Below are positions 41,234 to 43,537 of a stretch of DNA of 64,000 bases, piece by piece. Numbering within the stretch: the first letter of the stretch is position 1; each line of letters begins with the position of its first letter. The stretch comes from Candidatus Hecatella orcuttiae (lineage in GTDB: Archaea > Thermoproteota > Bathyarchaeia > Hecatellales > Hecatellaceae), in the NCBI GenBank assembly GCA_002011035.2, contig MTLY02000002.1:288001-352000 (forward strand). Direction: 5' to 3'. The notes under the pieces are model-generated. The model was not told the DNA's origin. It searched no databases and was given only the letters and a program-made list of their open reading frames with translations. A program made the translations under genes and the position numbers.

Positions 41234-41428
41234 CTGCCTAAAGAGATAAAGGACGTGGAGGAGTTCCTGAAGCTTTCAGCCAAAGCTGAAGTCTGCTTCC
41301 TCAAGAGGTCTGAAGATGGAGTGAAGCTCAAACTTCGAACCTCCAAGTATCTCTACACTCTCAAAACGGATGAAAAGCACGTGGAAGAAGTGAAAAAGAA
41401 AATAAAATGCCGTGTAGAGGAAATTTAA
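41234..41428 (+). CDS. rpl38e: Ribosomal protein eL38 (L38e), CTG start
   Basis: (M)PKEIKDVEEFL...VKLKLRTSKYLYTL matches eL38; SD GGGAGG; absent from the ORF track because there is no upstream in-frame ATG/GTG/TTG near the start. Confidence 0.92.
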   Translation: MPKEIKDVEEFLKLSAKAEVCFLKRSEDGVKLKLRTSKYLYTLKTDEKHVEEVKKKIKCRVEEI

Positions 41429-41477
41429 ACAAAAAGTCAGCCCGCCGAATGTTTCCTCCGAGAGGGTGGAAAGGGGA

Positions 41478-41771
41478 ATGAAGGTTAAAGTCGAATTCGT
41501 AGGATTCCTGAAGAACTTAGCAGGCCTTCAGCAGACAGAGCTCAGCCTCGACCGGGAGTCGTGTCAAAAACTTTCCTTGCTCATAGACCTTCTGGAGAAA
41601 AAGTTTGGAAAAAACTTGGGCGTAAACTTGGTGGAAAGAAGACCCGACGGAGTAAGGCTTCTCCCCTTAGTTCTGAAGAACGGTGTAGAGGTAAGCGCCC
41701 TCCAAGGATTAAACACGCCGGTGGAGGAGGGGGACTCCTTGGTTTTCGTGCCCGTTTCCCATGGAGGATAA
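41478..41771 (+). CDS. MoaD/ThiS/SAMP ubiquitin-like sulfur carrier
   Basis: Beta-grasp pattern; C-terminal VPVSHGG. Confidence 0.9.
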   Translation: MKVKVEFVGFLKNLAGLQQTELSLDRESCQKLSLLIDLLEKKFGKNLGVNLVERRPDGVRLLPLVLKNGVEVSALQGLNTPVEEGDSLVFVPVSHGG

Positions 41772-41924
41772 AAATTCAGAGATACCCTCCTCCACCGGAA
41801 TGTTTCCCACCAACCATCCCTAAGTGGTGTTTCTTTTCCGATGCGGAATGCGGCTGGGGGAGGATTTAAAATTCAAGCTTTCTCATATATTCGGTAAACC
41901 CCATGCTTCCCCATCAGAGGCAAG

Positions 41925-42114
41925 TTCTGCCTAAGGAGTTGGAGGAGCCTCCGCTGCTATGATGAACCAATAAGCCGGACAGAAGGCTTGAATAGACGGC
42001 GGAGGAGACCTACCCTAACCTCCAACTCGGGTAGAAGGACTGCAGGCGGGCTGTTGGGCGGAGAAACGTCAAGGCCTCTTTTGGCGAGGCGTCTGACTGC
42101 CTCCAGTTCGTCTG
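41925..42114 (+). ncRNA. Putative structured ncRNA (two long hairpins, K-turn), family unrecognised
   Basis: Stems 41936-45/42019-28, 41948-56/41997-42005, 42043-53/42104-14, with several G-U pairs that work only on the + strand; K-turn CTAT-GAT-GA/GA-ATAG; TATA-like boxes upstream; lies between convergent genes. Confidence 0.65.
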
Positions 42115-42126
42115 GAAAAGGCAGCC

Positions 42127-42945
42127 TTATCCCAGCTTGTAAGAAAGGATGAGGATCGCTGAGAACACGGCCAAAAACATGGACTCCCTCAGCCCAACCC
42201 TGAGGACGGCGGAGGTGTAAGTTTTTCTTCTCCCAACTCTCACCAACCTCGCCGAGAAAACCGAAAAAGCCAAAATCGTAAAGGGGGGAATGAGACGTGC
42301 TGCTGTCAGAAAGCCTGCTACTCCCAAGGAAAGGACATGTTGCAAGATCGAAAGCCAGTAGGCGGTCATCCTTTTTGGCTTGGACTTCGCTGAATCTGTT
42401 TTGAGCTCAGCAAATTCTACCTTCATTTCCGACAATAAAGTTCGGATGTAACTGTTGGTTGGAAAGTGGTAGAGGAGAAGAGTCAGCCACAGCATCCAAG
42501 CGGTTAAGTCGAAGCTGCCGGTCATGATGTAGTAGCCGGCGGGCGCTGCCAGTGTTAAACCTGCGATTCCAAGGTACTCTCCCCCCACACGAGACCCAAA
42601 CCTGTACTGAGCTAGGGGAGGAAGGATGACTAGGAGGAAGGCAACTCCGCCCAAGGGTATGAGAAACACCAAGCTGTACAAATGCACCAGCATGGCTAGG
42701 GTTAAAACTGAGACTCCTGAAACCACGGTAAACCAGCGGAAGGAGCCTCGCGTCCCCTCGGGCCTCACCCAGTCTTCGAACAGACGCTCAGCCACCAGGG
42801 CCAGAAAAGTTCCTGCGAAAAACAGTAGTAGCTTTCCCAAGTCAAAAAATTGACTGATCCCAACCCCGGTGAGGGAGGTGATAAGCCAGATTACCACAAT
42901 CCCTCTTTGGGTGGGTCTGATCCTCCGCCAAAAGGCCGGACTCAT
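42127..42945 (-). CDS. YwiC-like (UbiA superfamily) membrane protein
   Basis: P.Q.G N-terminal motif, RS..GE..G, VGL.E C-terminal motif; multi-TM. Confidence 0.7.
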   Translation of the reverse strand: MSPAFWRRIRPTQRGIVVIWLITSLTGVGISQFFDLGKLLLFFAGTFLALVAERLFEDWVRPEGTRGSFRWFTVVSGVSVLTLAMLVHLYSLVFLIPLGGVAFLLVILPPLAQYRFGSRVGGEYLGIAGLTLAAPAGYYIMTGSFDLTAWMLWLTLLLYHFPTNSYIRTLLSEMKVEFAELKTDSAKSKPKRMTAYWLSILQHVLSLGVAGFLTAARLIPPFTILAFSVFSARLVRVGRRKTYTSAVLRVGLRESMFLAVFSAILILSYKLG

Positions 42946-43111
42946 GGTTATGGCTTGTTAAGATTTTAAAGTAAGCTTTATCCTTTTGAGGATAAGAGGA
43001 CGTATTTTTCGATGAAAAAGCATCCCTTATAGGAGTTAATCTTGGGGCTGATTACTATAATTTTTTATATATTTACTATTTATTATAGAAAACTCTTGAG
43101 GGTAGGTTCAA

Positions 43112-43537
43112 ATGTCGGAGGAGGAAATACGCAGGGTAATGGAGGAGATTCTCCAAGGCTGTAAGGTTTGCACCCTAGCCACCGAAAGCGGTGGAAAACC
43201 TTGGGCTACAACCATGTTCTTCGCGGTGAAGGGGACGAATTTTTACTGCATAGTTGAAAATCGCGGCCACGGTATGGCGAATCTTAAAAAGAACCCTCAC
43301 GTGGCGTTGGCTATAGACAACAGAGTTCCGGATAGGTTTGTTCAAGCGGCAGGTACAGCTGAGGTGGTGGAAGGCGAGGAGGAAGCAGAAGGGAGAAAGC
43401 TTGTGCTGGACAGGGTGCCCGAGTATCGGCCTTTCTTCGAAATGGTCACCACCTCGCTGGTTAGAATAGTTCCGAAGGAAATCCATGTCACCGACGTTCC
43501 CCGAGGATGGTTTCCCGCGAAAGTCCTGAGGCTTTAG
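43112..43537 (+). CDS. Pyridoxamine 5'-phosphate oxidase-like (split-barrel flavin-binding) protein
   Basis: TLAT..G.P, NLKKNPHVAL.I, VQ..G.A. Confidence 0.85.
   Translation: MSEEEIRRVMEEILQGCKVCTLATESGGKPWATTMFFAVKGTNFYCIVENRGHGMANLKKNPHVALAIDNRVPDRFVQAAGTAEVVEGEEEAEGRKLVLDRVPEYRPFFEMVTTSLVRIVPKEIHVTDVPRGWFPAKVLRL

Follow-up and report, generated by a model that had tools for sequence, protein, structure and literature searches.

One of the archaeal small RNAs (sRNAs) described from Sulfolobus islandicus, sR666, is a hairpin with a potential kink-turn (K-turn) and no recognisable guide, and in the available part of its description it binds L7Ae and Cbf5-Nop10 in vitro (PMC11077068). L7Ae-binding K-turns have also been described outside the classical ribonucleoproteins (RNPs), in the leaders of archaeal mRNAs, and the accessible portion of that report proposes that the binding is regulatory (PMC5539422). 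For the H/ACA guides, the sections at hand of one study give productive RNAs a GA stem of 10 layers (8-11) and H/ACA-like RNAs one of 8-13, and they describe atypical H/ACA-like guides from Pyrobaculum and Sulfolobus that have no lower stem, free guide strands and a GA stem of 8-13 bp (PMC4652768); S. islandicus has, in the same partial account as sR666, a functional single-3'-guide H/ACA RNA (sR148) and guides that lack an ACA box (PMC11077068). Here we compare with these systems an RNA candidate of Candidatus Hecatella orcuttiae, a member of the Bathyarchaeia, which lies in a 355-nt intergenic gap between a convergent Urm1-like gene (+ strand) and a YwiC-like gene (- strand), within a 64,000-nt stretch of contig MTLY02000002.1 (positions 288,001 to 352,000; hereafter the window). 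Our tentative reading, to which we assign a probability of roughly 0.45, is that the candidate is a stand-alone structured sRNA restricted to one genus, whose conserved hairpin probably assembles with L7Ae.

Two hairpins are predicted on the + strand, and a 13-nt strand is exposed in a large internal loop of the first of them (Table 1). A preliminary description had proposed this architecture and its strand from the letters of the sequence, and all of its helices and motifs, together with the 13-nt loop, were found again within 1-2 nt. On the + strand, hairpin 1 folds at -50.9 kcal/mol (z -5.9, with none of 200 shuffles as good), as opposed to -38.0 kcal/mol (z -1.9) on the - strand; the corresponding values are -38.1 kcal/mol (z -3.3, 2 of 200 shuffles as good) and -23.1 kcal/mol (z -1.55) for hairpin 2, and -99.0 kcal/mol (z -3.2, 0 of 200) and -81.5 kcal/mol (z -0.2, 78 of 200) for the 241-nt region as a whole. 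These shuffle statistics confirm a structure beyond chance, and they bear out its assignment to the + strand.

A diverged version of the stretch is carried by two contigs, X8 and X9, from two hydrothermal-vent metagenome runs of two different studies. Their aligned cover ends at 42062 (X8) and 42047 (X9), 17 of the X8 and 4 of the X9 differences are unlisted, and the 3' strand of the basal stem of hairpin 1, the YwiC-like gene and a PNPOx-like gene beyond it lie outside the comparison. X9 has 14 listed substitutions and three indels in the 95 nt from 41835 to 41929, and three listed substitutions and no indel in the following 118 nt (41930-42047), as compared with 25 differences in 172 nt (14.5%) of the Urm1-like gene (3/118 versus 25/172, Fisher test, p 0.0004; p 0.02 if all four unlisted differences are placed in the hairpin, 7/118). 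X8 differs at four of the 89 positions from 41974 to 42062 and at 21 of 143 (14.7%) in the L38e gene (p 0.016). The neighbouring protein genes have thus diverged several-fold more than the core of hairpin 1, and conservation sets in at the start of the hairpin.

The four X9 changes that can be placed on the structural model are in accord with it. Two of them, 41968 C>A and 41969 A>G, affect the ACCAAU bulge, which is unpaired; 41929 G>A converts a G-U pair into A-U; and 42000 C>U converts G41953-C42000 into a G-U pair, the - strand equivalent of which is an A.C mismatch, so that this change is tolerated on the + strand only. No change is listed in X9 for the 13-nt loop (42006-18). The 5' leader hairpin (41904-22) has accumulated many substitutions and indels in both X8 and X9 and is therefore probably outside the functional core. 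Hairpin 2 is less conserved as well: the loose end of the X8 sequence has one deletion and four substitutions within 30 nt (42063-42093), of which the deletion and three substitutions are at internal-loop positions of the proposed model and one substitution is at the loop-closing pair C42078-G42086. Together, the X8 and X9 data show sequence constraint without proving structure.

The upper part of hairpin 1 contains the K-turn-like motif. Its C stem, a 3-nt bulge with U at the third position and both GA dinucleotides are present, on the non-canonical side a bulge of 6 nt leads into a stem of 5 bp, and the motif bases are identical in X9. Since the genome (1.75 Mb in three contigs, C1, C2 and C3) has genes for L7Ae (C3:470200-470475), Nop10, fibrillarin and a TruB_N (Cbf5-type) protein, K-turn RNPs are to be expected in this organism, and we infer from the sequence that 41957-41995 folds as a K-turn and is bound by L7Ae.

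The surrounding signals would suit an independent transcription unit, as had been proposed. T-runs act as archaeal terminators, and the one between the Urm1-like gene and the candidate is likely the terminator of an L38e / Urm1-like operon. Both TATA-like elements that had been noted upstream (TTTAAAA and CATATAT) are present. The putative promoter box TTTAAAAT is close to the boxes found 25-40 nt upstream of the tRNA, SRP and 5S genes of this genome (GGTTTAAAATC before tRNA-Arg, AAAATTTAAC before the SRP RNA), and it has no listed change in X8 or X9; a scan for sigma-70 promoters and intrinsic terminators is uninformative for an archaeon. Transcription would start near 41895, at a pyrimidine-purine step that is kept in the variants. 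Were it to stop at the first downstream T-run, which lies in the loop that caps hairpin 2, an RNA of ~187 nt would result, in which hairpin 2 would be unable to form; run-on beyond this point is predicted to give an RNA of ~220 nt with its end near 42115.

Taken together, these features suggest a small non-coding RNA gene with its own promoter on the + strand, in which hairpin 1 would be the functional core under purifying selection. The CUAU-[GAU]-GA/GA-AUAG motif would fold as a kink-turn and recruit L7Ae to form a stable small RNP, whose activity may be carried by the conserved, exposed, C/U-rich 13-nt loop or by a protein scaffold. A bolder version would make hairpin 1 the RNA subunit of an undescribed archaeal class of L7Ae-type RNP (neither C/D nor H/ACA, RNase P or SRP) that arose recently in one genus and presents a conserved 13-nt anti-Shine-Dalgarno-like strand from a rigid, K-turn-bent scaffold, so as to capture purine-rich RNA segments and either regulate translation or serve as a guide of a new kind. 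We consider this version unlikely, and a categorically new RNP class is to be doubted to the same degree; calling the RNA a new class is possible, on the basis of one genus and without covariation.

Table 1. Features of the locus in window coordinates; the last row gives genome contig positions.
Feature	Position	Strand	Remarks
ThiS/MoaD/Urm1-type beta-grasp protein gene	41466-41771	+	product ends in GG
T-run TTTCTTTT	41830-41837	+	59 nt after the Urm1-like stop (41771), 5' of the TATA-like box
TATA-like box TTTAAAAT, putative RNA promoter	41865-41872	+	resembles boxes upstream of this genome's ncRNA genes
TATA-like elements TTTAAAA and CATATAT	41865-71; 41884-90	+	
5' leader hairpin UGCUUC/GAGGCA	41904-41922	+	predicted fold; variable in X8 and X9
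Hairpin 1, conserved core, 112 nt	41925-42036	+	predicted fold
Hairpin 1, basal stem UUCUGCC/GGUAGAA	41925-31 / 42030-36	+	7-8 bp, with optional extra U/G pair: UUCUGCC(U)/(G)GGUAGAA
Hairpin 1, 5' bulge above basal stem (AAG)	41933-35	+	3-4 nt
Hairpin 1, 10-bp stem GAGUUGGAGG/CCUCCAACUC	41936-45 / 42019-28	+	10-nt perfect inverted repeat (I5 in the repeat search)
Hairpin 1, 2 x 13 nt internal loop, AG vs AGACCUACCCUAA	41946-47 / 42006-18	+	
Hairpin 1, 9-bp stem CCUCCGCUG/CGGCGGAGG	41948-56 / 41997-42005	+	then bulged A, then 4-bp stem
K-turn-like motif and apical element	41957-41995	+	CUAU/AUAG C stem, bulge GAU, tandem G.A, ACCAAU, AAGCC-GGACAGAA-GGCUU
Motif parts CUAU; bulge GAU; GA; opposite GA; AUAG	41957-60; 41961-63; 41964-65; 41990-91; 41992-95	+	
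Hairpin 1, apical stem AAGCC/GGCUU	41972-76 / 41985-89	+	5 bp, 8-nt loop GGACAGAA
GGGUAG, alternative partner of CUACCC in the 13-nt loop	42029-34	+	
Hairpin 2	42043-42114	+	five G-U pairs, 12 x 6 nt internal loop
Hairpin 2, stem CAGGCGGGCUG/CAGUUCGUCUG	42043-53 / 42104-14	+	
Hairpin 2, stem GGGCGG/CUGCCU	42056-61 / 42097-102	+	
Hairpin 2, stem GCCUC/GAGGC	42074-78 / 42086-90	+	
TTTT in hairpin 2 apical loop, possible RNA terminator	42079-42082	+	first downstream T-run; kept in X8 loose-end sequence
Weakly YwiC-like membrane-protein gene	42127-42945	-	YwiC score of 18.6 bits, below the cut-off of 25
RNase P RNA; SRP RNA; 5S rRNA	C2:470380 and C3:4813; C2:451502; C2:82634		Rfam matches

Several observations weigh against reading the candidate as an L7Ae-binding sRNA. 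A descriptor for K-turns (a stem of at least 10 pairs, a 3-nt bulge and GA...GA) has 450 matches in the genome and 246 in a shuffled genome, an enrichment of ~1.8-fold, and because it is so frequent by chance the K-turn-like motif taken on its own is weak evidence. Its non-canonical side is atypical, in that the six bulged nucleotides ACCAAU separate the two G.A pairs from the apical stem, and a U41971-G41990 pair is formed instead in the fold of lowest energy. The conservation rests on single contigs of low depth (2-4) from the two runs; there are no compensatory double changes among the differences seen, and 41925 U>C and 41926 U>C in X9 would open the two outermost basal pairs, barring unlisted compensation near the contig end. 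Using the element as a blastn query, we found no homologue in 40 relatives or in 400 Bathyarchaeia genomes, where the matches were chance ones of 20-35 nt (the best of these within a 365-aa open reading frame, ORF), and two single-sequence covariance models, R1 for the entire element and R2 for hairpin 1, gave nothing credible in sets of 60, 13 and 39 genomes. They yielded one partial match, of 16 bits, that was of no use, and the single full-length match, at 17.7 bits, lies within a 647-aa ORF and has many non-standard pairs. No homologue outside the genus came to light in these searches. Finally, no target of the loop stands out in rRNA or tRNA.

The relatives searched are distant, with Urm1-like proteins at most 51% identical, and there is no synteny with them at the locus. 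The exact 23-mer from the conserved stem and K-turn retrieved nothing usable from metagenome or genome contig collections, nor did the gapped K-turn pattern from viral contigs. At seven loci of the family, the Urm1-like gene is followed by an abutting convergent ORF of 395-466 aa, and other gaps hold a tRNA or unrelated sequence. These searches make it probable that the RNA candidate is restricted to one genus of Bathyarchaeia. The Urm1-like gene itself is present in 38 of 41 genomes searched, and the content downstream of it varies between them.

The position of the element, exactly between convergent genes, raises the question of whether it acts in cis, as a bidirectional terminator or stabiliser of 3' ends or as + strand read-through antisense to the YwiC-like mRNA. 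The end of hairpin 2 and the YwiC-like stop codon are 13 nt apart, there is a - strand T-run at 42116-19, and the lower conservation of hairpin 2 relative to hairpin 1 is what would be expected of a purely structural element. The RNA and the YwiC-like and PNPOx-like genes are moreover all absent from the searched relatives and may have arrived together: the YwiC-like protein has no detectable relative in 40 related genomes or in the metagenome and genome contig collections, the PNPOx-like protein has none in the 13 related genomes searched, and the RNA and these two genes (the latter at 42127-43537) may be a single lineage-specific insertion. A cis-acting structure nevertheless sits ill with the T-run and the good TATA-like box between the Urm1-like stop and hairpin 1, archaeal termination needs T-runs and not 112-nt hairpins, and a terminator or stabiliser has no need of a core so much better conserved than the adjacent coding genes; on balance we think it a rather unlikely explanation. 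It is also conceivable that nothing here is functional and that the hairpins are a DNA-level palindrome, a remnant of an inserted segment or a chance structure. The element is single-copy and found in one genus, the surrounding segment is not syntenic with relatives, and hairpin 1 has only two G-U pairs, which would allow most of it to fold on the - strand too, or to extrude from the DNA as a cruciform. The fold of hairpin 1, equalled by none of its shuffles, its conservation far above that of flanks and coding genes, the change at 42000 that is acceptable only in a + strand RNA and the five G-U pairs of hairpin 2 speak against such an origin and make it very improbable, as do the lack of mobile-element genes among the annotated neighbour proteins and the lack of terminal repeats flanking the candidate in an inverted and terminal repeat search.

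Two further accounts turn on the 13-nt loop. The preliminary description had suggested it as a guide. One reading of this kind takes the RNA for a pseudouridylation guide of an atypical H/ACA-like type, with one guide strand, on the 3' side, and with L7Ae, Nop10, Cbf5 and Gar1 as its proteins. The K-turn-like motif (CUAU-[GAU]-GA opposite GA-AUAG, a sequence-level match) belongs to an upper stem that rises from a large internal loop, as in H/ACA guides, H/ACA proteins are encoded in the genome, and the precedents for single-3'-guide and ACA-less RNAs in S. islandicus introduced above led us to search for targets. The best duplex with rRNA or tRNA reached -16.8 kcal/mol and was matched by 8 of 100 shuffled loops, which does not support the suggestion; the best anchored guide match comprised nine pairs with one mismatch. 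The best 3'-guide match is an 8-bp one, AGGGUGGG with CCUACCCU, and it abuts the A-loop of 23S rRNA, just upstream of and 2-3 nt away from a U that we take to align with E. coli U2552; the complement is missing from the second 23S copy. A second proposed guide, ACCAAUAAGC, fared no better, as it carries two of the three listed X9 substitutions of the conserved block. The geometry is also wrong for this class. Because it comprises 9 bp, a bulged A, 4 bp and two G.A pairs, the GA stem has 15-16 layers, beyond the range of productive and H/ACA-like guides alike (PMC4652768, in the sections cited above); the 3' strand of the loop has 13 nt, where 5-6 nt are required, and the 5' strand 2 nt; and the loop is closed by the perfect 10-bp stem and the 7-8 bp basal stem, a lower stem of 17 bp of the kind that atypical guides do not have. 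As had been stated from the outset, the element departs from the H/ACA rule that sets the distance from pocket to ACA: no ANA box is found 14-16 nt from the closing pair, where CCU/CUC stands (42019-22 reads CCUC), and GGGUAGAAGGACUG after the lower stem gives no correctly placed ANA. An H/ACA-like guide is accordingly the reading to which we give least credence.

Alternatively, the RNA might regulate by base-pairing, with the K-turn-like motif a coincidence, through an anti-Shine-Dalgarno-like loop (ACCUACCCUAA, and after it ACCUCC) that would pair with purine-rich ribosome-binding regions; the 3' end of the 16S rRNA reads ...GAUCACCUCCU. One example is the PNPOx-like gene, only 1.1 kb downstream, whose ribosome-binding region UGAGGGUAGGU (43097-43107, + strand, 5-15 nt before the ATG at 43112) can form 10 consecutive pairs with the loop, one of them G-U (-17.8 kcal/mol, rank 20 of 9681 start windows). 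The loop 11-mer ACCTACCCTAA has four exact copies in the genome, compared with 0-1 in five shuffles, and three of the four are intergenic (C3:54553, C3:104351 and the RNA candidate itself). However, 19 other start windows pair better, the count with one mismatch equals the shuffled expectation (30 versus 20-35), the longest exact complements (15 and 14 nt) are found 5' of promoters or on the strand that is not transcribed, and any anti-Shine-Dalgarno-like sequence will match ribosome-binding sites. Pairing with the PNPOx-like leader is thus a weak lead, and a base-pairing regulator of this type seems distinctly unlikely to us. In comparison with these accounts, the L7Ae-binding sRNA is the one that we retain.

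Membership in known RNA families was also considered. In agreement with the earlier expectation that no catalogued family would be recovered, a search against Rfam 15 gave zero matches at gathering score across the whole window, and a permissive scan of 41700-42250 placed only SNORD105 (17.8 bits, gathering 45) and sR14 (10.2 bits, gathering 38) on the element, both driven by AUGAUGA. The two boxes that had been pointed out as C/D-like, ATGATGA (41959-65) and CTGA (42093-96), are indeed there; lying 128 nt apart, they cannot form a C/D motif, and we reject a C/D box sRNA, with only box C present, CUGA inside hairpin 2 and the C/D models scoring as given above. RNase P, SRP and 5S RNA have no covariance-model match at the element even at E up to 10; they have full matches elsewhere, and the genes for RNase P and SRP RNA at other sites in the genome agree with the earlier view that the element is neither. 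ARAGORN finds no tRNA in the window. A bulge-helix-bulge motif requires a second bulge 4 bp away, and here there is only the one 3-nt bulge (AAG 41933-35), the second being missing, so the element is not an intron of this kind. A SECIS element was rejected in view of the lack of a selenoprotein gene upstream and of an Rfam match, and a transposon-associated guide RNA and the terminal repeats of a mobile element in view of the lack of a transposon gene nearby and of repeats around the element.

The gap itself has little coding potential. Frames of at least 30 aa are limited to one of 36 aa and one of 54 aa, both on the + strand, in keeping with the initial judgement that it holds no credible ORF. 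A mini-ORF of four codons (AUG AUG AAC CAA UAA, 41959-41973), opened by the box-C-like AUGAUGA and 13 nt 3' of GGAGG, is probably incidental. The names first given to the flanking genes hold up unequally: 'moaD' stands in the broader sense of a ThiS/MoaD/Urm1-type beta-grasp protein, and 'ywiC' is a weak assignment below the cut-off (Table 1). The neighbourhood is a housekeeping one, with genes for PEP carboxylase, a B12-binding protein, an SSB-like OB-fold protein, endonuclease V, a CTP-dependent riboflavin kinase with an HTH domain, L38e and the Urm1-like protein; the YwiC-like gene is followed by the PNPOx-like gene, a glycosyltransferase 4 and a nucleotidyltransferase. The L38e gene is very short (57 aa, 41255-41428) and is located directly 5' of the ubiquitin-like Urm1/ThiS-type gene.

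At the level of the genome, full sets of C/D and H/ACA proteins are encoded. A regular expression for C/D boxes yields two candidates (C2:145847 and C3:11755), and a classic H/ACA descriptor 12 matches versus five in a shuffled genome, with no clear reference guide set. Since the guide proteins are encoded and simple descriptors find almost no canonical guides, the small RNPs of this genome may look unusual. ARAGORN reports no more than 24 tRNA genes, including a tRNA-Pyl call at C1:349861, and it is probable that many tRNAs and guide RNAs contain introns or depart from the usual form. There are two very dissimilar rRNA operons (C2:464353-470771 and C3:4-5114; by blastn, 23S pieces are ~76-82% and 16S pieces 87-91% identical), and within ~150 nt after each of them comes a separate RNase P RNA gene (scores of 178 and 189 bits); either the bin is chimeric or its two operons are unusually heterogeneous. 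The 16S match at C2:464353-466521 spans 2169 nt for a model of 1478 positions and the 23S match at C3:827-4683 spans 3857 nt for 2987 positions, lengths that suggest rRNA genes with large insertions (introns).

The Bathyarchaeia are an abundant group, most of it uncultured; to our knowledge their non-coding RNAs are essentially uncharted, and a literature search on these gave nothing relevant. If our reading is correct, a conserved K-turn hairpin outside the geometries of both guide classes would point either to a novel role for L7Ae or to an RNA gene of very recent origin. Should the K-turn prove coincidental, the element would be one more lineage-specific structured sRNA, helpful for annotation and no surprise.

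How the element relates to known K-turn RNAs can be seen from a comparison of their parts. It shares with archaeal C/D sRNAs (sR14 and the SNORD105 clan in Rfam) a perfect box-C-like AUGAUGA, the second GA of which can form tandem G.A pairs with the opposite UUGA beside a Watson-Crick stem. However, its K-turn register differs from the geometry of the C/D motif, the C'/D' boxes and the guides of 10-12 nt that characterise C/D sRNAs are absent, and these RNAs are 50-70 nt long, compared with ~190 nt for the element. With archaeal H/ACA guides it shares, besides the placement of the K-turn over an internal loop, a lower stem, which is longer in the element (10+7 bp) than in H/ACA RNAs (7-9 bp). 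The K-turns of archaeal mRNA leaders sit, as far as the accessible portion of that report goes, in the 5' leaders of protein genes (PMC5539422), whereas the motif here has no ORF downstream and is embedded within a 112-nt hairpin. sR666 is presented in the available part of its description without single-stranded regions (PMC11077068), while the element combines a conserved 13-nt single strand with a second hairpin. We therefore propose, from a comparison of descriptions only in which the likeness comes from a sequence-predicted K-turn, that the element is a putative orphan archaeal K-turn sRNA with sR666 as its nearest described counterpart.

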